34,283 nucleotides of DNA from Candidatus Altimarinota bacterium. Lineage in GTDB: Bacteria; Patescibacteriota; Gracilibacteria; UBA4473. Location of the stretch: contig JALVIB010000030.1 of NCBI GenBank assembly GCA_027028725.1, positions 1 to 34,283 of the forward strand, given 5' to 3'. The notes beneath the pieces are model-generated. The model was not told where the DNA came from, did no database searches, and saw only the letters and a list, made by a program, of their open reading frames with translations. Position numbers and translations under genes: made by a program. Shown here one piece after another: positions 547 through 31,138 of the stretch; the stretch's first letter is position 1, and every line of letters begins with the position of its first letter.

Positions 547-3500
547 TTACTGTTCAGAAGCACCAGCCAAAGTGCCGCTAGGAATAGTTAACTCGTATCC
601 ATTTAAGAATGGATAAGCACCAGTATTATCTGACCGATCAGACCAAACAATATCAGCTGGGGCAGCAGCAGTAACAGGAGTATCTAACACTCCGTCACCA
701 TTACCATCAGTCCCCGCACCAGCATTATCTGTAGCATCAACTGTTTCGTAAGCTGCAGCAGCTGTTGCTTCGTTAACAAATGAGAATGAAAGAGAATCAA
801 CCCCATCTGTTGTGTTAAGAGGGTCTTTAGTTCTTAATTCATAATAGTTAGTATTTTCAATTAAGTCACTAAATCCATCAAATACAAGAGCATCGTATGT
901 TCCAGCTCCGGCAGAATCTAATATAGCTACAGGATTACCTGTGTAACCAGAATCTGCAAATTTAACTAAACTCCAATTTGTGTCTGTGAAATCAGCTGAT
1001 GTATCGTATACATTAGTTGAAGAAGATGTCACAGAGAATGTTAATCTGTTAATGTTAGCATCTCCTGCAGCATCAGTAGAAATAGAGAATCTGAAAACAG
1101 CTTTATCACTTCCACCAGCAGAATCAGCAGTAAATACTGGTTGAGTTGATTTTGGAAGAGCGTTTATTGTTATCTTTGTTTTGTAAGCAATAAATGCATC
1201 ACCAGTAGCTGGTGCACCAGCAATACTTGTTTGGCTAACATCAGTTCCAGTAGCACCTGTTAGCGCCTCAATTCCAGTGCTAGTTGTCCCCGGTATAGAA
1301 GGCATTGTCGTATCTAGTTCTAATTTTAACTGTTTAGCAGTTCTAGCTGCATCGTTAATGTTTCTGACCTTAATTTTAACAGTTACGTCTGCACTACCAT
1401 CCTTCGGAACAATAATCTTATTGGCGTTAAGTTCAAAATGAACTTTTCCGTTTGTCATTTGTTCTGTCCCTAGCAACTGACCAGCTTCGTTGTATAACAT
1501 AAAGTCAGCATGACCATCAAAGTCAGTTCCTATTGCATTAGTTAGGTAAAGATCTTTAACTTGAATTTCATCATATTTAGATTCTAAACGCAATTTCCAT
1601 ACCTCAGCAGTTTGATTTTCAACTAGAACAGTTGATGGATAGATACCTTCTTGTGAAACAGTTAGTGTTCCAGAAGTTGTAAATGTGAATTCTGCTCCAC
1701 ATAAGTAGTTAGGTGTATCTAATGATCCGTCACAAGCACCTGTTAGATCGCCTGGACCAGCCGTATCAGTACCACCTAATAGATCACCAGCTTCGTAAAC
1801 TTTAACACCACTACCATTTTCAGCATTATCAGCATCAACTGCTGTAACTGCCATTCGGATAGTAGATCCACCTGGTGCTTCAGTAACGGCTGTCCCTACT
1901 GGGACTTGTGCACCAAATTCACCAGAATTATTAACAGTTCCTTCATTATTTTTACATGTAACTGTGTTTCCTGTAACATCTTCTACCACACATGTTTCTG
2001 CACCAATAGTTAGAGTATCTCCATCAGAAATGTTATTTGCACTAGCAACAGTAAATCCGGATGAAGCCGCACCAACTGGGTATTCTCGTGAAACGCTATT
2101 AATATCCTGTCCAGTATGATCAACATCAACAGTAGATGGATCAACAACGATAGCTGTAGCTCCAGTACCTGCATCTGCTGTAACAATAATAAAGTCACCA
2201 TTCATTTCAATAACATCTCCTGCTTTTACATCAGCAGTAATACCACTAGTACAGTTAACTGGAGAAGTTGAGTTTGTAGCTGACGCATCAGCTGCTGGAC
2301 AAATAGCCCCTCCTACAACATTTGTTGTACTTGTTCCGTCGTCAACTACAGTTGTATTAGCCAAAGCCTCAGTAGCAACTGCTTCAATAGTATCCATCAC
2401 AACAGTAAATTCTTCTTGTCCTGCTGATGGAATTACAACTGCAATGTCGTTAAAGGCTGCAGTTCCTTTAATTGAAGCATCTGACGAATTATCAAGAGTT
2501 TTACTTGATCCGATTTGTTGTCCGTCCACAAACAATGAAGCTGTGAAGTTTGAGTAGTTAGATTCAGCCGCACCTGTTCCCAATCCTTTGATTGTGATTG
2601 AAGTAATGTTTACATCTCCTGAATCATTGTTGTCTAGAACGAATTTCATAAATGTAGCATCTTGAATACCAGCAACAGCTACCTCTGAAGTAAAGCTATC
2701 TGTTCGTGTAATTGTTAGAACTGATTCCTCAACTTCAACTTTTGAAGCCAATGCTGAACCCAAAAGATCATTTTCTACTACTGTATCCCCTGAAGAAATG
2801 TATTCTGGAGAATCAAAGTCTTTGGCATATAATGCAAATTTAACCCATGATCCTGTAGTAGCTTCATCTTTGATGTTCATTACAAGTTTCATTACTGAAG
2901 CACCTGTAATTTCAAATTGAGAAGAATAATCTAGGTAAGGAGCTGCATCAGTTCCTGATAAAGTGTTTTCTGTATCAACTAGATCGTCGTTCAAGTACAA
3001 TCGGAAGTTGTCGAAGTAGTTGTTCAATGTTGTAAGACTGTGTTGGTCTCCTGCAGTATCTCCATCAATGTCGTATGAATCAACTTTAATTTTAACTCCG
3101 TCAACCATAATTGGTTGTGAAACAACAACTCGTGCTGTCATAGCTACAACATCGTTAGATCCCGGAGCGTATTCTTGGTTTCCTAGAGAGTTAGGGTCTC
3201 GAGAAACATTAATGTCTCCTGAATCAATTGTGTATTTAGCCAAAGTAGCGTTAGCGTCTTCAGCGTTGTTTCCTGATGGGTCAACTGTTTTAACACCGAA
3301 TGCTGTACCGATTTCGATACCTACAATGTCTTCAAAGTTATCAACTTTGAATTCGATGTAATCATTAGCTTCTGCTGAAACAACATCAGCTCGCATTGAG
3401 AAGATTCGAGAATCTCCGTCTTCAATAACATATCCTCCTGTAACTCCGTTATCTAATCGGAATGTTACATAGTCTCCGTCAATAATAGTTTCTGCAGAAA

Positions 3501-5198: not shown

Positions 5199-5463
5199 AC
5201 TTTCGTGATTTTCTAGACACATTTAATACAATGCAAGTAGTTAAACGAATTTCGCGGGATTTTGTTACAAAAAAACTTAGATTACGAGTTCACAAGATTA
5301 CAATAAATTCCCGCGAAAATTTACCATCTTCGTCATTGCGAGGAGCGAAGTATGAGCGACGCGGCAATCTACTTCCTTATTTTCAAATCCCCCTTAATCC
5401 CCCTTTCTCAAGGGGGAAATTTAAGGAATTATTTAAAAATCCCGCGAAATCTTCGCAAAAAAT

Positions 5464-5538
5464 GTAGGGACGCCCTTTATAGGCGTCCAAAAAAAATGAA
5501 TTCCAAATTATCGGGCGACCACAAGGAATCGCCCCTAC
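5464..5538. repeat. Inverted pair of GTAG-type REP elements (REPIN-like)
   Basis: GTAGGGACGCCCTTTATAGGCGTCC and the inverted GGGCGACCACAAGGAATCGCCCCTAC; related copies at ~5932, 10822 and 27342. Confidence 0.8.
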
Positions 5539-5568
5539 GAAAAATTTCGCGGGATTTTCCAACAGGGG

Positions 5569-5643
5569 TGGTGGAGCCAAGGAGAATCGAACTCCTATCT
5601 CTGCATTGTCAAGATGAGTATTTTACCATTAAACTATGACCCC
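5569..5643 (-). tRNA. Atypical tRNA with Ala-type acceptor (G3:U70, A73) and irregular anticodon arm (GAC or TGA register); possibly a pseudo-tRNA
   Basis: GGGGTCATAGTTTAATGGTAAAATACTCATCTTGACAATGCAGAGATAGGAGTTCGATTCTCCTTGGCTCCACCA: good acceptor, D and T arms and encoded CCA, but an imperfect anticodon stem. Confidence 0.75.
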
Positions 5644-6339
5644 GACTCCACCAGCGCGGAGTATATAAAAAAAGCTCGCCACAGCAAGCTCTTTTTATTG
5701 ACAATGCAGAGTGGGCCATAACTTTGGCACTCATCACTGGGATAATACCCATTCTTGTTTTATTTGTCAAAAAAAATCCCGCGAAAATTTACCATATTCG
5801 TCATTGCGAGGAGCGAGGTATGAGCGACGCGGCAATCTACTTCCTTATTTTCAAATCCCCCTTAATCCCCCTTTCTCAAGAGGAAAAACTAAGGAATTAC
5901 AAAAAAATCCCGCGAAATCTTCGCAAAAAATGTAGGGACGCCCTTTATGGGCGTCCAAAAAAAGTTAGATTACAAGTTCACGAGTTTACGAGTTCACAAG
6001 ATTACAATAAATTCCCGCGAAAATTTACCATCTTCGTCATTGCGAGGAGCGAGGTATGAGCGACGCGGCAATCTACTTCCTTATTTTCAAATCCCCCTTA
6101 ATCCCCCTTTCTCAAGAGGAAAAACTAAGGAATTACAATAAATTCCCGCGAAAATTTACCATCTTCGTCATTGCGAGGAGCGAAGTATGAGCGACGCGGC
6201 AATCTACTTCCTTATTTTCAAATCCCCCTTAATCTCTTTCTCAAGGGGGAAAACTAAGGAATTATTTTGAAAATTTCGCGGGATTTTCAAAAGGACAGGT
6301 CACGACCTGTCCTTTCTTGTTATCTTATAAACTCGTAAA

Positions 6340-8421
6340 CTATTCCCCGTTTCGTTCAGCGATAATTTTTTCTTCAACACTTTTTGGAACTTTCGCGTAA
6401 TCCGCGAATTCCATTGAATAACTGGCTCGTCCTTGAGTCATTGAACGAAGTTCTGTCGCGTATCCAAACATCTCTCCTAGTGGGATTTTGGCTTTAACAA
6501 AGTTGTTTAGACCGCGTGTCCCAGATTCTTGAATAATTCCTCGTTTTGAAGAAATGTTTCCCATAACATCTCCCAAATAATCTTCCGGAGTAATGACTTC
6601 CACATTCATAATTGGTTCAAGAATTGCTGGATCAGCGCGTTTTCCTCCGTCTTTGAAGGCTTGTGCCGCCGCAATCTTAAAGGCTAATTCAGATGAATCC
6701 ACATCGTGGTAGTTACCATCAACTAGTTCAACTTCCACATCAACTACTGGATATCCCGCGAGAATTCCGCGAGAAGTTGCTTCGTTAAATCCTTTTTCAC
6801 AACCTGGAATATACTCGTTTGGAATTGAAGCTCCTTTAATAGAGTTGATGAATTTAAATCCTGATCCCGGTTCTCCCGGACGAATTTTACAAATAACATG
6901 CGCGAATTGTCCACGACCACCTGATTGTTTCTTGTGAATGTATTCTGCATCAACTTCTTTTTGAATAGTTTCGCGGTAAGCAACTTGTGGTTGCCCGATA
7001 TTCGCTTCAACTTTGAATTCTCGTTTCAAACGATCAACTAGAATGTCTAGGTGAAGTTCTCCCATTCCCGCGATAATTGTTTGTAAAGTTTCTTCGTCAG
7101 TCCAGACTTTGAAAGTTGGATCTTCTTCGGCTAATTTTTGTAGAGCCAATCCCATTTTTTCTTGGTCAGCTTTTGTTTTTGGTTCAATTGAAATCGAAAT
7201 AACCGGTTCTGGGAACTCAATACTTTCTAGCAAGAACTCTTTCCCCATATCACACAAAGTGTCCCCTGTTTTGGTCGCTTTCAAACCAACAACCGCTCCA
7301 ATGTGTCCGGCTTGAATTTCTGGAATTTCTTCGCGGTGATTGGCGTGCATTTGTAATAATCGTCCCACTCGTTCTTTTTTCCCAGAATTAGCGTTGTAGA
7401 TATAAGATCCGGATTTCAAAGTCCCAGCATAAACTCGCACGAAACTAAGTCGTCCCACATACGGATCAGTGGCAATTTTGAAAGCCAAAGCCGCCAAAGG
7501 TCCGTCTTTGTCCGGAGGACAAGCCGTTTTCTTTTCTGGATCATTAACATCTTGCGCCTCAGCTGGTGGAATATCTTTTGGTGAAGGTAGTAATTCGCAA
7601 ACTTTGTCTAACATTGGTTGCACTCCTTTGTTTTTCAAAGCCGTTCCCGTCATAACCGGTACAAATTCTCCGGCAATAACTGCTCGTCGCATTCCCGCGA
7701 TAATTTCTTCTTCGCTCAATTCTTCTCCGTTCAAGTATTTTTCCATCAAAACTTCGTCTGACCCAGCTACCGCTTCCAGCATTTTTTCACGCCATTCTGC
7801 TGCTTCATCAGCCATATCTGCCGGAATATCAACAACATTAATATCCTTTCCAAGATCATCGTTGTAAACAGTCGCTTTCATTGCAATCAAATCAACAATT
7901 CCTTTGAAATCCGCTTCATTTCCGATTGGCAACTGAATTGGGAAAGCGTTTTTGGTCAATCTTTCGACAATTGAGTCATAACTTCGCCAAAAACTAGCTC
8001 CAGTTCGGTCTAGTTTGTTGATAAAACACATTCGCGGAACATTATATTTGTCAGCTTGTCGCCAAACTGTTTCTGATTGTGGCTCAACTCCCGCCACACC
8101 ATCAAAAATACAAACCGCTCCATCCAAAACTCGCAAAGATCGTTCCACTTCCACGGTAAAATCCACGTGACCAGGTGTATCGATAATGTTAATTTGGTGT
8201 CCTTTCCAGAAAGCAGTTGTCGCTGCCGAAGTAATGGTAATACCTCGTTCTTGTTCTTGTTCCATCCAGTCCATAGTAGCTTCACCTTCGTGAACTTCTC
8301 CTAATTTGTGAGATTTCCCAGTATAGAACAAAATTCGTTCTGTTACGGTTGTTTTTCCAGCGTCGATATGGGCAATAATTCCAATATTTCGGACTTGCTC
8401 CAGAGGTAAGATTTTAGTCAT
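6340..8421 (-). CDS. fusA: Elongation factor G
   Basis: [52 protein letters not shown]; 693 aa. Confidence 0.99.
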
Positions 8422-11835: not shown

Positions 11836-12369
11836 ATGAATATAGATTTAGCCGATACAAAATACCAAAAACCAGTTTCTAAAACCACGAAAAATTCGCG
11901 GGATTTTTTGAAAACTTTTCTAATTCTCGCTTTTTTGGGAATTTTGGTCTGGTTTGGAATTCTTTTTTATCAAAAAACCACTTTAGAAAAGGAAAATGCA
12001 CGCTACCAAACTTCAATTGAAACGACAACAGAACGAGTCAAAAAGCTACTTAATTCAGATAATCCCGCGAAAAAAATCGCCGTTGCCAAGACTTTAAACA
12101 AATTAGAAAAAAGACGAATTTTGTGGTCCGAAGTGATGGCGAAAATTATTAAATTAGAAATTCCCGGAATTACTTTTCGTGATTTTTCTGTCGGCGACAA
12201 AGGGCAAATTTCAGCAACTGTTTCCGCGCGAAGTTTCAATTCTGTTCAGCAGTTCGTCAAAAAATTAAATTCCGATGAAAATGTGTCGCAAGTCGTTATC
12301 AATTCGATTCGTTTGGATGAAGCGACTGCGGGCTTGCTGGTGGATTTAAATTTTAACTTTAAATACTAA
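11836..12369 (+). CDS. Type IV pilus assembly protein, PilN-like
   Basis: Single TM, coiled coil, WSEVM..I, ferredoxin-like C-terminus; lies upstream of PilO-like and PilC genes. Confidence 0.7.
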   Translation: MNIDLADTKYQKPVSKTTKNSRDFLKTFLILAFLGILVWFGILFYQKTTLEKENARYQTSIETTTERVKKLLNSDNPAKKIAVAKTLNKLEKRRILWSEVMAKIIKLEIPGITFRDFSVGDKGQISATVSARSFNSVQQFVKKLNSDENVSQVVINSIRLDEATAGLLVDLNFNFKY

Positions 12370-12890
12370 TGAAAACTTGGAAAATTTTATTCATTGTGAT
12401 TTTGATTAGCGCGATTGGGTTTGGAGTTTTTCCTTTGCGGAAAAAAATCGCGGGATTACGAACAGAAAACCAAAAACTCGCCAAAATTCGCGAGCAAAAA
12501 ATCGCGGAATACGAAGAACTTACTAGCAAGATGCAAAATCCTGATCAAGGAATTGCTGATCCCGAATTAAAAATCCCGCGAAAATTAGCGCAAACGGAAT
12601 TATTGATAGATTTACAAAAAATCGCTTCTCAAACTGGAATTGAATTGCCAGATTCGTGGTCATTTTCCGTCACCAAAGATGCTGATTTGGATATTTCTCA
12701 GTTGGGCGTGTCTTTCTCGATCAAAGGAAGTCGCGGGAATATTTATAAATTTTTACAACTTGTCGAGCAAAACGAAAGATTTATGGATGTCGAAAGATTG
12801 GCTTTGCGGACTTTTTCTGATAACGGAGTACCAACGATAGAAATGCCAATTAATTTAACTGCTTATGCACAAGAAATTGTCGAAAAATAA
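12369..12890 (+). CDS. Type IV pilus assembly protein, PilO-like
   Basis: N-terminal TM, coiled coil, IP......LL..L..IA..TG, KG....I..FL..VE...RFM.V pattern. Confidence 0.75.
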   Translation: MKTWKILFIVILISAIGFGVFPLRKKIAGLRTENQKLAKIREQKIAEYEELTSKMQNPDQGIADPELKIPRKLAQTELLIDLQKIASQTGIELPDSWSFSVTKDADLDISQLGVSFSIKGSRGNIYKFLQLVEQNERFMDVERLALRTFSDNGVPTIEMPINLTAYAQEIVEK

Positions 12891-12902
12891 TCCTGTGGAC
12901 TA

Positions 12903-14087
12903 ATGAATTTGAATTTTAAAATCTCTCCCAAGAATAAAATCCCGCTGCGCCCCGCAAGGCGGCGGCGAAAAATTATTTACGGGGTGACTGATCGGTCAAA
13001 TGATTCTTTGTGGCAAAAAATAAACGACTTTTTAATCGATAATTCACCAATTACCAAGAAAGAAAAAATGGTTTTTTTTAATTCCCTTAAACTTTTAGTC
13101 ACTTCGGGAGTTAATTTTACCAAAGCCATTCACATGATGGCGGAGCGGAGCAAAAATGAGCATTTGAAACGAATTTTACATACCATTGAATACGATATGT
13201 TGAACTCGGGGATGAGATTTTCTGAAGCAATGGCAAAATATCCGCGAGTTTTTAGTGTTTCAGAAATGAAAATGATTTATTCTGGAGAAATCGCGGGGCG
13301 GTTAGAAGAAGTTTTGGAAGCAGTAGCAACGCGAATTCAGAAAAATATCGAAATGGAAATTCGCGTGAAATCGGCGATGATGTATCCGATTACGGTTTTT
13401 ATCGCGATAATTTTGGCGGGAATAGTGGTGATGCTTTTTGTCGTGCCAAAATTTGAAGCAATGTTCGCGAGTTTTGGGAGTGATTTGCCGATTGCGACCA
13501 AAATTATGATTGGAATGTCGCGCTTTTTTCAAGACTACTGGTGGTTTTTGTTATTAATTTTAATTAGTGCTTGGGTAATTTTCCAAAACTGGAAAAAAAG
13601 CGAAGACGGAAAATATCAATGGGACGAGTTTTTATTGAATTTGCCGGGGATTGGTCCATTAATTCGCGATATTCAAACTGCAAAAATCGCGGGAAATTTT
13701 TCCACTCTCTTGGAGTCTGGAATTCCGATTGCCAAAGCGATTCATGTTTTGGGAGAAATTATTGATAACGATGTAATTTCGCAGGTTTTACTGCAAATTG
13801 AACACGAAGTTCGCAAAGGAAAACAAGTTCACGAAGCTTTTGCAGAACACCCAGAACTAGACCCGATTCTGGCAGAAGTGATAGAAATTGGGGAACAATC
13901 GGGAGCAATTCCGCAAGTTTTGCATAAAGTTGGAATGCAGTATGATTTAGAAGTTGACGCGCAGTTGAAAAATTTATCGGCGATGATTGAGCCACTGGTG
14001 ATTTTAATTGTAGGGCTGGCGGTCACCTTTATGGCGTTGGCGATTATGACACCAATTATGAAAATGCAATCGCTTTTTGCCGGCTAA
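12903..14087 (+). CDS. pilC: Type IV pilus platform protein PilC / T2SS F family
   Basis: Two T2SSF domains: SGV....A, GE.AG.LE.VL, KSAMMYP, LLESGIPI, IGEQSG, IEP. Confidence 0.93.
   Translation: MNLNFKISPKNKIPLRPARRRRKIIYGVTDRSNDSLWQKINDFLIDNSPITKKEKMVFFNSLKLLVTSGVNFTKAIHMMAERSKNEHLKRILHTIEYDMLNSGMRFSEAMAKYPRVFSVSEMKMIYSGEIAGRLEEVLEAVATRIQKNIEMEIRVKSAMMYPITVFIAIILAGIVVMLFVVPKFEAMFASFGSDLPIATKIMIGMSRFFQDYWWFLLLILISAWVIFQNWKKSEDGKYQWDEFLLNLPGIGPLIRDIQTAKIAGNFSTLLESGIPIAKAIHVLGEIIDNDVISQVLLQIEHEVRKGKQVHEAFAEHPELDPILAEVIEIGEQSGAIPQVLHKVGMQYDLEVDAQLKNLSAMIEPLVILIVGLAVTFMALAIMTPIMKMQSLFAG
12946..12966. mobile_element. 21-bp small dispersed element inserted in the core motif
   Basis: AAAATCCCGC[TGCGCCCCGCAAGGCGGCGGC]GAAA, giving IP[LRPARRR]RK. 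Confidence 0.85.
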
Positions 14088-14155
14088 ACATAACCCCTAA
14101 ATCCCCTTATCAGGGGACTTATCCAGAAAATCCCGCGAAATTTATAAGAAATAAA

Positions 14156-14785
14156 ATGAGTAGTAATTCTAAAAAACAAACTCAAAATAAATTTCCCCCT
14201 GATAAGGGGGTCAGGGGGTTAAATTGTGGATTTACTTTGATTGAATTATTGGTAACAATGTCAATTATCGCGATTTTATTCGCGGTGGGAATGCCGGCGT
14301 TTTCAGATTTTCAAAAAACTTCTCGACTCAAAGAATCCGCGGAAACTTTGGAAACAGCTTTTGGCGAAGCTTTTTCGAGCGCGCGTTCCCGACCGGAATG
14401 TTTTGTGTTTTCGGGATCAGGGAATTCTTTGAAATTAGAAAGTTTTGATAAAACTTGCGAAGGAAATGCAAAAAATTCCCGCGAAATTTCTCTAAACCCT
14501 GGAGTGGAAATTTCTGAAAATTTTAAGATTAAATTCAAACCACCATTTGGTGATTTGGAGCTTGTTGAAGGAGATCTTGAAGATGAAAGTGATGAATTAA
14601 AAATAAAACTGTGTAATAAAGATTGTGTGAATTTTGTGGTTTATCAAAAATCGGGATTGTTGACGAGAAAATCCCGCGAAATTTCGGGGGAGAGTGTTTC
14701 CAAGTCCGGACTTAAAGTCCTGAGTTTTGTCTCAAGTCCGGACTTAGAAAAACACTCGGGAAATTCTAACCACTCAAGACAATGA
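14156..14785 (+). CDS. Minor pilin / pseudopilin (FimT/GspH-like)
   Basis: Prepilin motif G|FTLIELLVTMSIIAIL...P, then A.S.ARS; leader and C-terminal tail are repeat-derived. Confidence 0.85.
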   Translation: MSSNSKKQTQNKFPPDKGVRGLNCGFTLIELLVTMSIIAILFAVGMPAFSDFQKTSRLKESAETLETAFGEAFSSARSRPECFVFSGSGNSLKLESFDKTCEGNAKNSREISLNPGVEISENFKIKFKPPFGDLELVEGDLEDESDELKIKLCNKDCVNFVVYQKSGLLTRKSREISGESVSKSGLKVLSFVSSPDLEKHSGNSNHSRQ

Positions 14786-15258
14786 GAACGAAACAAAAAG
14801 GATTTGCTTTAATTGAAGTGATTGTTTCCATTGTGATTTTGTCGCTGGTTTTGGTAGCTGCGGTGGGACTTTTGTATTCCGTGGGACAAGCGGTAGAAAC
14901 CAACCGCGACCGCTTAACCGCGACTTATTTAGCGCAGGAGTGTTTGGAACTAGTCCGTAACGCCCGCGATACTTCTTGGAAAAACTACGAGCCATGGGAT
15001 TGCGCATGGAAAGAAACAACGCCTTGTGAGGGAAAACAGATTGTAAACCTGATTAAACAAAATCCAGTAATGATAAATGAAGAAAGTACAAAATTTTCGC
15101 GGGATTTTCAGGTAGAATCAATTGAGAATGTTTTGCAAGCACAAAGAAGCAGAACCTTATCGAATTCCGAAGAAGTGAAAATAACTTGCACCGTCTCGTG
15201 GGGCGAGAATTCCAAACTATCCATTTCGGAAATACTTACTAACTGGCGGAAAAGATGA
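14782..15258 (+). CDS. Minor pilin (PilV/GspI-like)
   Basis: KG|FALIEVIVSI, A.YLAQE.LE.VR, ITCTVSW. Confidence 0.85.
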   Translation: MRTKQKGFALIEVIVSIVILSLVLVAAVGLLYSVGQAVETNRDRLTATYLAQECLELVRNARDTSWKNYEPWDCAWKETTPCEGKQIVNLIKQNPVMINEESTKFSRDFQVESIENVLQAQRSRTLSNSEEVKITCTVSWGENSKLSISEILTNWRKR

Positions 15259-15914
15259 GAAAAATTTGGGAAAAAGTTTTTGGTAAAATCCCCCTCAATC
15301 CCCCTTTAAAGAAAGGGGGAGGCTCGCAGCAGGTGAAACAGGATGAAAAAAATAAAAAATTTTCCTTTTTCATCCCCCTTTTTTCAAAGGGGGACAAGAA
15401 GCAGGGAATAAGGCAAAGGGGGATTTTAATCAGAAATTTCGCGGGATTTTCCCTCATCGAATTGCTGGTGGCAATGACCATTGGTGGCGTGATTTTGACC
15501 GCAGTGATGACTAGTTATGTGGCAATGACCAAGACGAGTTTGCGACTGGATTTGGCGCGCCAGATGCAGAAAGAAACAAATTTCGCGGTAATTCGAATGG
15601 TGGATAAAATTCGGAATTATCCGATTAAAAATTGTGATGAGAAAAAATTAGTTTTGCAAAACAGACAAGGACATGAAATTACTTTTAAATTTTTGTTAGA
15701 AAATAAACAACAATTAACTCTCAATGAACAACCGCTTTTTTCGGAAAATATCGCGGTCGATGACGGACATTTTGATTGTAAAGGACTTGATGATGAAGAA
15801 AATCCCGCGAAAATTCAGCCCCGCGTGCAGATTTATCTCCAAGTTTCCGCGAAAAAAGATCCCGAAATCACCAACCGCGTGCAGACGACTATTTCTTCAC
15901 GAATTTTTAACTAA
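15255..15914 (+). CDS. Minor pilin (PilW/GspJ-like) with a long repeat-derived leader peptide
   Basis: AG|FSLIELLVAM at about residue 65; C-terminal QTTISSR. Confidence 0.85.
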   Translation: MRKIWEKVFGKIPLNPPLKKGGGSQQVKQDEKNKKFSFFIPLFSKGDKKQGIRQRGILIRNFAGFSLIELLVAMTIGGVILTAVMTSYVAMTKTSLRLDLARQMQKETNFAVIRMVDKIRNYPIKNCDEKKLVLQNRQGHEITFKFLLENKQQLTLNEQPLFSENIAVDDGHFDCKGLDDEENPAKIQPRVQIYLQVSAKKDPEITNRVQTTISSRIFN

Positions 15915-15967
15915 CCCCTAAATCCCCTTATCAGGGGACTTTAAAAATCCCGCGAAAATATAAAAAA

Positions 15968-16939
15968 ATGAATAAATTAAAAAAACGAATACGAAACATC
16001 TTCCCCCTGACAAGGGGGCGAGGGGGTTTGAAAAACAACGGAATGGTAATCCTCTTGCCGACAATTATTTTATCAGGACTGATTTTGGCGGTAGGACTTG
16101 GTTTGTCGCGGGTTTTGATGACGGAACTAGAATTTTCCGCGGATTTGTTGTTTTCCGAAAAGGCGTATTTCGCGGCGGAATCTGGAGTAGAAAAATCTCT
16201 TTTGGCGCTCAAAGATAAACCGCTTAACTATGTTTCCGAATCGGATAAAGAAGTGGGAACAGGCGCGACTTATGATTTGGAAATTGCTAACTCGGTAAAA
16301 GAATTTCCGTTCGTTTTAGACGAAAACGAAACTATTAAATTCCGCTTGGGAGTGGATACTAATGAGAGTTTCGCGGGATATTCCGTGCGACCGATTACAA
16401 GTTTCAAAGTAGATAATTTAGTGGGAATAAAAAGAAATCTGCACTGGAAAATCCTTTGTTTAGTTGATAGCGGAGGAAATCCCGCCCTTCAACGAAGTTC
16501 AGGGCAAGCCCATCGGCAGAGCTCAGGGCAAGCGAAAAAAACGGTAGCCTTGTCAGGGACAGGAGATAATTTTACCAAAGGAAATTATGATGATGGAGAG
16601 AATGAGATTACAACTGAAACTATAGTGAACTTTTTAGGTAGATATAATTCAGAGGGAAACCCTTGTTTTATGTCGTTATCTAATTTTTCTGAGATAAATG
16701 AAGGAAATTCTAGTCGAACCAACCCTTCAACATTTAACTCACAACAAACTAATAATTCAAAAATTCGCGGGATTTTTAAGCCAATAATTCCCGAAACAAT
16801 CGCTCCAGCAAAAGTGAAAATCACCGCCACGGGAAAAAGTTTTTCCCGCGAAAAAATTGTTTCCTTTGATTATTGGCAAAAGAATCTATCCGCGGTTTAT
16901 GATTTGGGGTTGTATTATACGAAAGATTTAACAGAGTAG
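15968..16939 (+). CDS. Minor pilin (PilX/GspK-like)
   Basis: NG|MVILL hydrophobic helix without Glu5, KAYFAAESGVE, ITATG near the C-terminus. Confidence 0.8.
   Translation: MNKLKKRIRNIFPLTRGRGGLKNNGMVILLPTIILSGLILAVGLGLSRVLMTELEFSADLLFSEKAYFAAESGVEKSLLALKDKPLNYVSESDKEVGTGATYDLEIANSVKEFPFVLDENETIKFRLGVDTNESFAGYSVRPITSFKVDNLVGIKRNLHWKILCLVDSGGNPALQRSSGQAHRQSSGQAKKTVALSGTGDNFTKGNYDDGENEITTETIVNFLGRYNSEGNPCFMSLSNFSEINEGNSSRTNPSTFNSQQTNNSKIRGIFKPIIPETIAPAKVKITATGKSFSREKIVSFDYWQKNLSAVYDLGLYYTKDLTE
16486..16533. mobile_element. Two tandem 24-bp small elements inserted in the core motif
   Basis: AAATCCCGC[CCTTCAACGAAGTTCAGGGCAAGC][CCATCGGCAGAGCTCAGGGCAAGC]GAAAA, giving NPA[LQRSSGQA][HRQSSGQA]K. Confidence 0.85.
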
Positions 16940-30009: not shown

Positions 30010-30282
30010 CTAACGAAAAAGATCCGAATGCGAGCCGGTTCTTTCAAAAATTACAGATTTTTCTTCTAATTTGTAAATCAAAATCCAGTCCGGAGCAAGA
30101 TGTAATTCTCGTCGGTTCTTAAATTTTCCTAATAGTTTATGATCTTTAAATTTTTCATCCAAAACTTTGCCTTTTGCTAACATCTCAACAACTTTTTTAA
30201 ATTCTGTGAAATCTTTGCCAGACTTTTTTTGTTTACGAATGTCTCTTTTAAATTGGGTACGATAAACAACTTTTCGCATCAA
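30010..30282 (-). CDS. yafQ: YafQ-family mRNA interferase toxin
   Basis: QFKRD, DHKL.G....RE.H..PDW.LIY, RTGSHSDLF. Confidence 0.92.
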   Translation of the reverse strand: MMRKVVYRTQFKRDIRKQKKSGKDFTEFKKVVEMLAKGKVLDEKFKDHKLLGKFKNRRELHLAPDWILIYKLEEKSVIFERTGSHSDLFR

Positions 30283-30539
30283 ATTCCTAATTCTTCAAAT
30301 AATTTCGCGGGATTTTCAACATAATTTAAATCTTTTCCTTGATCTGTTTCCCTCAAAACTCGTTCAGTTTCAGCATTAGGAATATTTCTAGTGGGAACAA
30401 CCGTGGCGATTTGAATCCGCCCTGAAGCAAAATCGTTCAAAAGAATTCGCGCTACTGCCGAGACACTCATATCATATTTTTTCGCGACTTTTTGAGCGCG
30501 AGCTTTGGTTGATTTTGGAATTGAAATAGTTGTATTCAT
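30279..30539 (-). CDS. RelB/DinJ-like antitoxin
   Basis: K.RA..V.....MS.S...R..L, PNAET...L.E, LF.EL; overlaps the yafQ start (ATGA). Confidence 0.8.
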   Translation of the reverse strand: MNTTISIPKSTKARAQKVAKKYDMSVSAVARILLNDFASGRIQIATVVPTRNIPNAETERVLRETDQGKDLNYVENPAKLFEELGI

Positions 30540-30614
30540 GGAATTTGTTTAATGAAATCTAATGAAATTATACATTTTTCATTATAAACCGGCAAGGAAA
30601 AATCCCGCGAAATT

Positions 30615-30887
30615 TTACAGCCCTAATTCTGAATGCGTCCCAATATTTTCTAAAACAGCCTTACTGTTATCTTTATCAATCCGCACAATAATTCGCAAAT
30701 CTCCACCGATTTCCAGTTCCTCATACCCAATAAACCTTCCCCTTAATTTTTTTCGATAACAATTTGCTTGCCGTCCTAATTTAGAAAAATCTATCAAAGC
30801 TTTATTTATTTTATCTTTTAAATTCTTTCTAGATTCTACTAATTTTCGCGCGTTTTTTTGGAATTTTTTAGAAAAAATTAACTCCAT
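30615..30887 (-). CDS. RelE/YafQ-superfamily toxin
   Basis: FSKKFQK...K, KL.G...G..E..I.GDLRI, L.NIGTH.EL. Confidence 0.8.
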   Translation of the reverse strand: MELIFSKKFQKNARKLVESRKNLKDKINKALIDFSKLGRQANCYRKKLRGRFIGYEELEIGGDLRIIVRIDKDNSKAVLENIGTHSELGL

Positions 30888-31138
30888 AATGTTTTGTTTA
30901 ACAAATCTTCGGTGATTTCTTCTTGGTTAGGATTTACAGAAACATAATTGTTATTTTCGCCTTTCAGAGACTTTTCGACATTATCCCAATAAATTTTATC
31001 CGCCTTTGCCAAGAAATCCTGTTTATCAAAATACATTTCCAAGGCTTCGTTTATAACACGGCTTTTATTTTTAAATTTAGACAAAATATTCCACAAAGGT
31101 TTTTGCAAAGAAACGCTTGTTTTGACGGTTGTAGTCAT
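30878..31138 (-). CDS. Putative ribbon-helix-helix antitoxin
   Basis: KTSVSL...L...L....NKSRVINEAL..Y; upstream of and overlapping the toxin. Confidence 0.7.
   Translation of the reverse strand: MTTTVKTSVSLQKPLWNILSKFKNKSRVINEALEMYFDKQDFLAKADKIYWDNVEKSLKGENNNYVSVNPNQEEITEDLLNKTLWS

Follow-up and report, generated by a model that had tools for sequence, protein, structure and literature searches.

An in-frame double-hairpin repeat in the predicted leader of a minor prepilin gene of a Gracilibacteria genome

The window analysed here is the complete 34,283-nt contig JALVIB010000030.1 (C30) of a draft genome (1.04 Mb, 38% G+C) of a Candidatus Altimarinota bacterium, with genes called by a simple ORF caller written for this analysis. 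PilN-, PilO- and PilC-like ORFs at 11836-14087 are followed by four prepilin-type genes starting at 14156, 14782, 15255 and 15968, for which the labels FimT, PilV, PilW and PilX are our own and are based on gene order and profile matches. The third gene (15255-15914) matches the Pfam N_methyl profile (PF07963) at 31.9 bits against a cut-off of 21.2, and TIGR02532 above its cut-off; among NCBIfam models, the PpdB-type PRK10557 scores best but stays below its cut-off. The gene product has Gly at -1, a hydrophobic stretch and Glu at +5, and the predicted leader is basic and hydrophilic (16 K/R vs 4 D/E; best 19-residue hydropathy, -0.31). A gene for an A24 prepilin peptidase is present in the genome.

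Table 1 Features of the prepilin locus and related in-frame domains. Positions are those of the window unless a genome and contig are named (G000, this genome; G002, a congener).
Feature	Position	Strand	Remarks
PilW/PpdB-like minor prepilin gene	15255..15914	+	219 aa; third of four in the minor-pilin operon; orthologues
ATGA, start codon overlapping the stop of the PilV-like gene upstream	15255..15258	+	sole in-frame ATG ahead of the cleavage site
Host-derived leader codons 1-11, MRKIWEKVFGK	15255..15287	+	resemblance to G002, L175 and G005
Double-hairpin repeat, 143 nt	15285..15427	+	11-bp perfect terminal inverted repeats (12 bp with flanking T/A); in-frame read-through
Hairpin 1, C-run/G-run stem	15300..15319	.
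A-rich linker	15320..15373	+	common to the 11 intergenic long copies aligned
Hairpin 2	15374..15393	.
Right-end module of a second sub-family: 23-nt spacer and terminal arm	15394..15427	+	lacks the TGA of the usual right end
Word copy AAATTTCGCGGGATTTT, spelling N-F-A-G|F	15434..15450	+	genus-specific, genome-wide
Predicted prepilin peptidase site Gly64|Phe65, Glu at +5	15444..15449	+	PF07963, TIGR02532; A24 peptidase gene in genome
Family hairpin of the first prepilin (14156), inside its leader (25 aa)	14195..14218	.
Family hairpin of the PilX-like gene (15968), inside its leader (25 aa)	16003..16018	.
In-frame DUF559 domains	G000 C60:8525-8963; G000 C5:5284-5657; G002 C17:12569-12889

Most of the leader consists of a 143-nt repeat built of two hairpins. 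The repeat strand has a predicted folding energy of -34.6 kcal/mol (z -6.1), and the surrounding mRNA region is also strongly folded (z -4.8). A search of Rfam over 14000-16700 found nothing near threshold (four matches at 20-23 bits vs thresholds of 60-95). The first-pass annotation of this DNA had described the repeat as homologous, linker included, to an intergenic unit at about 285-405. This holds for 15284-15393, which is 79% identical to 283-394 over 112 columns (E 9e-22) and 86% identical to a copy on C79, with the linker alone scoring above 2000 of 2000 shuffles, and for the last 11 nt. It fails for 15394-15416, which is without counterpart in the 285 unit and follows a sub-family with a 23-24-nt spacer (C17, C19, C45, C68 and C84). 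The repeat is thus a mosaic whose final 34 nt come from a second sub-family. Since this module is found at five other places as well, we do not take 15394-15416 to be left over from an earlier leader. A TA flanks the leader copy and the copy at 283 but not the other aligned copies, and the orthologues are too diverged to give a clean empty site.

About 13 long copies occur in the genome (the leader copy and 12 others), and all 11 that were aligned lie outside called genes. The wider hairpin family has 235 members in this genome, of which 166 are intergenic and 69 coding. Elsewhere, there were eight hairpins in 798 kb of G002 and one in each control. The full-length repeat was found in none of 40 related genomes, 15 of which had half-unit matches. 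Tandem intergenic repeat copies occupy 5-410 of the window. Between an SLH-domain gene and that of EF-G (5302-6330) lie four copies of a 194-nt unit with a family hairpin and a copy of the word described below.

The assembly of the leader copy was compared with contigs from other runs; among the seven runs listed, none is from RNA, which is uninformative about expression. A contig from another study (X4) covers 15354-15484 with three differences and no gap, and joins the right half of the repeat to the mature pilin. In the likely source run (X1), the region lies in two identical contigs with a 23-nt overlap, which are hence not independent. Among the matches listed, no independent read contig spans the left junction of the repeat with the PilW start. 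Contigs of X2 and X4 also contain two joins, one between the end of the PilW gene and 15279 and one between 15449 and 16031 (region 15908-16031), a hint of a related strain with the same repeat and word in its PilX leader; the sides of these joins are short (30-40 letters, 80% likeness), and other copies may be their source.

The ORF from 15255 translates as KIPLNPPLKKGGG...IPLFSKGD, and its predicted leader has 64 residues. At the 19 orthologue loci with a printed start, leaders have 5-28 residues (median 7); this count leaves out the weak hits L023-L025 and two loci without a printed start (L003 and L007). The 143-nt repeat lies in none of these 19 leaders. Congener PilW leaders have 24 and 30 residues, the longer one at locus L175. 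Prepilin leaders are given as 6-26 residues and their length is called variable in reviews (PMC4471445; PMC10191384), and the leader of 15255-15914 is far above that range. It shares with the class III signal peptides described there (PMC10191384, PMC4471445) a basic leader, Gly at -1, Phe at +1 and Glu at +5, and differs in length.

Several lines of evidence point to translation from 15255. The first 11 codons are identical to those of G002 at 23 of 33 nt without gaps, and the genes at L175 and in G005 start alike. An overlap of the form TGG-N9-TGA (Trp-x-x-x-stop/ATGA) is found at 11 of the 19 orthologue loci with a printed start and also at L175. The only in-frame GTG of the leader (15333) lies within the repeat, and there is no in-frame ATG, GTG or TTG between the repeat and the cleavage site. 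The repeat is free of stops in the leader frame, whereas the 10 other long copies are open in only 3 of 30 same-orientation frames and stops are present in all eight other long copies read in the register of this leader. Shine-Dalgarno-like words are depleted upstream of ATG genes throughout the genome (14/697 vs 57/697 control windows inside genes), which makes translational coupling the likely route to a start at 15255: ribosomes would restart at the ATGA overlap and read through the repeat. A MAFFT alignment that placed the congener N-terminus at hairpin 2 was rejected, as the best match there is 16 of 33 nt vs 23 of 33 at the ATG.

Alternatively, the repeat could be an untranslated intercistronic hairpin, with a near-cognate start after it (ATT 15423 or ATC 15429) and a leader of 6-8 residues. 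Such a leader would fit the family median, the strong fold of the mRNA region would be expected of such a hairpin, and N-terminal REPs often reflect misannotated starts according to one study (PMC3733652). We nonetheless consider this improbable, given the missing conventional start codon after the repeat, the overlap and the 11 codons kept in relatives, a stop-free frame that only about one in ten frames of other copies would allow, and a genome without Shine-Dalgarno signals able to rescue a weak start. The start at 15255 and the unusual length of the leader, as annotated at first pass, are therefore retained: neither of the refuting outcomes named there, a true start downstream of the repeat or repeat-free orthologues with equally long leaders, was observed.

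The first-pass annotation also had the repeat motif itself encode the G|F of the cleavage site. The codons concerned (TTC GCG GGA TTT = F-A-G|F, 15438-15449) are outside the repeat, 10 nt past its right end. They form part of another element, a word of 17-18 nt that is spread over the whole genome. Its exact 13-mer has 1,319 copies in 1.04 Mb (654 forward, 665 reverse), i.e., more than one per kb. Two congeners have 244 and 956 copies and 58 other relatives 0-1, which confines the word to the genus among the 61 genomes. Matches to its 9-mers fall inside genes in 1,255 of 2,199 cases, and of 980 copies aligned with G002, 568 are unchanged there, a raw figure without a neutral baseline. The word encodes 124 of the 130 FAGF peptides of the genome, vs 5% expected from codon usage, and 124 of all 1010 Gly-Phe pairs (12%). 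Further copies in the window lie at 14127-14143 and 15944-15957.

We compared the cleavage site across relatives. All 18 orthologues outside the genus have a Gly/Ala cleavage site without the word, and the congener locus L175, whose mature part matches G001, keeps the site without it as well (ACG GGA TTT). In G002 the word is present at the same site and the hairpin repeat is absent, so the word is likely older than the insertion. Judged from these sequences, the word did not create the cleavage site, which likely predates both word and repeat. The simplest reading is that the word accreted on a site already supplying GGA TTT T; because these letters already give part of the word, it could have arisen by substitutions in two or three free codons ahead of the Gly.

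These comparisons bear on the earlier proposal that the motif was co-opted, i.e., that the word was selected as a processing site after the insertion destroyed or displaced the old one. The genome-wide count of prepilins suggested along with that proposal gave the word at G|F in 6 of the 24 parsed and in 6 of the 15 with Gly at -1 (24 of 25 PF07963 matches were parsed; C91, with G|E, was left out). The excess over all Gly-Phe pairs (6/15 vs 124/1010; raw p=0.006) and the use of the word by three of nine parsed prepilins in G002 would agree with selection. The excess fades to p=0.08 against Gly-Phe pairs in a similar K/R/N context (37/191, 19%), GF[ST] pairs have the word in 42 of 157 cases (27%), and none of the eight parsed prepilins of G001 uses it. 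Five of the six word-bearing prepilins have leaders of 9-10 residues and no hairpin. Since G002 has the same word and site without the repeat, and L175 and the 18 outside orthologues have the site without the word, co-option is largely refuted by the orthologues and we regard it as very improbable.

Our preferred reading, which we consider probable from the sequence comparisons, is that the 143-nt double-hairpin repeat is a non-autonomous selfish element inserted in frame. It would add some 48 residues to the translated leader, and these would likely be lost on cleavage at a Gly|Phe site that predates the element. A prepilin leader remains cytoplasmic and is removed by the prepilin peptidase, so in such a leader only the frame and the absence of stops would be under selection.

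Cleaved leaders had been proposed as safe havens for repeats. Family hairpins occur in 3 of 26 prepilin leaders, vs expectations of 0.09 from the coding rate and 1.0 from the intergenic rate; the three belong to one operon, with 0 of 23 others, so they do not represent independent events, and this locus was chosen post hoc. The operon leaders of congeners contain other palindromic repeats (PilW at L175; PilV in G002, 37 aa; PilX in G002, 33 aa, and in G001, 24 aa), and a family hairpin is found in the first prepilin leader of G018, a member of another genus. More generally, a hairpin precedes the N-terminal hydrophobic segment in 6 of 241 genes, whereas 4 of 601 other N-termini contain one (p=0.004); leaving out the index gene and a gene of doubtful status raises this to p=0.04. 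The layout of the index leader recurs in a gene with a class I-type signal (C77:4675-7257, minus strand), which has nine conserved residues, a 36-residue paired-hairpin gain relative to G002, a word-encoded FAGF and a hydrophobic signal. On the other hand, 55 of the 235 hairpins lie deep in coding regions, inside mature parts, and tolerance thus does not need cleavage. The data lend the safe-haven idea modest support, at a rate of gain like that of intergenic DNA, without making leaders the exclusive place for repeats.

Three further arrangements were seen at leaders. The first and fourth prepilins each have an inverted pair of hairpins around the start codon (14092-14218 and 15915-16030): one arm lies in intergenic DNA, the other is read as part of the leader, and the word lies between them. 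Paired hairpins also lie in the n-region of a lipoprotein-type signal (C61 near 700-920, plus strand). On C25 (near 7090-7152, plus strand), a CA microsatellite encoding a His-Thr repeat extends a pilin leader to 21 residues, where a G002 pilin has a short HTH.

The insertion could instead be adaptive, with the hairpin or the long basic leader tuning minor-pilin expression, stoichiometry or processing. This would fit the recurrent gains in this operon, which are seen in three congeners and in G018 and in none of 20-odd scattered pilins, and the presence of the repeat in samples of a second study. The inserts are, however, unrelated in sequence between species; the genome has 332 internal insertions of at least 6 aa vs 90 in G002 (592 gene pairs), so bulk tolerance suffices; and, as the overlapping genes have no spacers between them, free space exists only in leaders and tails. 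We give an adaptive role little weight relative to the selfish, tolerated insertion.

A candidate source of the repeat was found in genes with a DUF559 domain. Each of the four DUF559 matches of this genome lies within 400 nt of a family hairpin; one, a stand-alone protein gene on C84, neighbours a long copy, and two are in frame inside long ORFs. The association extends across the class: over the 61 genomes, a hairpin lies within 250 nt at 23 of the best 30 DUF559 loci (on both sides at 16) and at 0 of 23 in control intervals 1.0-1.27 kb away; kin are not independent in this count, which spans several families and establishes co-location only. The in-frame domains lie within ORFs of 820-1400 aa and have hairpins at one or both edges. 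We infer that the DUF559-hairpin cassette is the parent or mobiliser of the repeat, and the leader copy would then represent the paired-hairpin layout minus the gene, as in a non-autonomous derivative. A RAYT appears a poor candidate for the mobiliser, as the single Y1 match of the genome (PF01797) is without a family hairpin within 400 nt.

Hairpins also lie close to the word. With a relaxed pattern, the word is found within 40 nt of 116 of the 166 intergenic hairpins and of 33 of the 69 coding ones (random, 46% and 30%). At tightly mapped insertion events, the empty site of the congener has the word in 17 of 28 cases; the corresponding figures are 12-15% for equal windows, whatever their conservation level, and 27% (163/614) for small indels. 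The count as printed is 31 of 47 rows, with one event doubled, and 18 hairpins without net insertion were set aside. As the word is also enriched at ordinary small indels, a shared preference for loose regions may account for some of the adjacency. The order of events suggested by these sequences reverses that of the first-pass annotation: the word would have been at G|F first and may then have attracted, or licensed, the insertion of the repeat. A fuller scenario, which we regard as a doubtful possibility, is that an undescribed mobile family (a Vsr-like DUF559 nuclease between C-run hairpins) spreads nuclease-less derivatives near the word, that the FAGF-spelling word steers insertions into cleaved leaders, and that the peptidase still processes 64-residue prepilin leaders.

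The closest parallels by description are the Rickettsia palindromic elements, which are described as stem-loop repeats of 105-146 nt, mostly intergenic (PMC2229807). They and intragenic REPs are reported in in-frame fusions within conserved genes, with near-neutral effect (PMC2229807; PMC10969869; PMC3733652). The likeness to the Rickettsia elements, compared by description only, lies in an in-frame stem-loop repeat of 100-150 nt in conserved genes; the differences from these elements and REPs are the lack of CGTC/GTAG, an insert in a part that is removed after translation, the tie to DUF559 and the adjacency to the word.

BIMEs have a layout of inverted palindromes and linkers in a mosaic. 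The repeat shares with them and with GTAG-REPs this architecture, a mainly extragenic distribution and tandem intergenic copies, and to this extent the label BIME-like given at first pass is apt. GTAG and CGTC tags are absent from both strands of 15284-15428, and the partner gene is DUF559 rather than RAYT; with no GTAG tag and no hairpin near the Y1 match, the repeat is not a BIME in the strict sense. Like MITEs, it is short (143 nt, below 200), has terminal inverted repeats, is multicopy, codes for no transposase and forms an in-frame fusion; in contrast to them, it has no clear target duplication, and its ends are common to DUF559 nuclease cassettes, with no known cognate transposase. The Yersinia YPAL/RU-2 MITE is reported to form part of a predicted signal peptide (PMC2229807). 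That element creates part of a signal peptide, whereas the leader repeat pads an existing one.

The word resembles an uptake sequence or a HIP-type word. DNA uptake sequences occur about once per kb on both strands and within genes, in genomes with competence genes; the word is alike in density, strand balance and genic copies, ComEC is present, and uptake is a candidate function. It is also like HIP1 of cyanobacteria as reported (PMC5861425, PMC4390886), in occurring about once or more per kb, strand-symmetrically, in genes and in a restricted lineage, but it is an imperfect palindrome that is symmetric only in its CGCG core and A/T flanks. A search for a C5 methyltransferase (PF00145) that might act on the word found none in G000, G001 or G002.

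In a literature search that reached few subscription papers, we found no report of repeats in prepilin leaders or of a 64-residue prepilin leader, none of DUF559 with inverted repeats or hairpins, and nothing describing the word among uptake sequences in Patescibacteria. Palindromic repeats in frame within proteins are known; cleaved signal leaders as their place were not found in print. If the leader is translated and processed, it would redefine the practical range of prepilin peptidase substrates, and start-site and pilin predictors would truncate such genes. The DUF559 cassettes and the hyper-abundant word offer a testable route for repeat movement and site choice.

Two other observations were made in the window. 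The C-terminal tail of the first prepilin (14668-14785) consists of the word and two copies of another palindrome, which occurs 131 times in the genome. On the minus strand at 30010-31138, there are two pairs of short overlapping ORFs (86-90 aa), which we take to resemble RelBE-type toxin-antitoxin modules.
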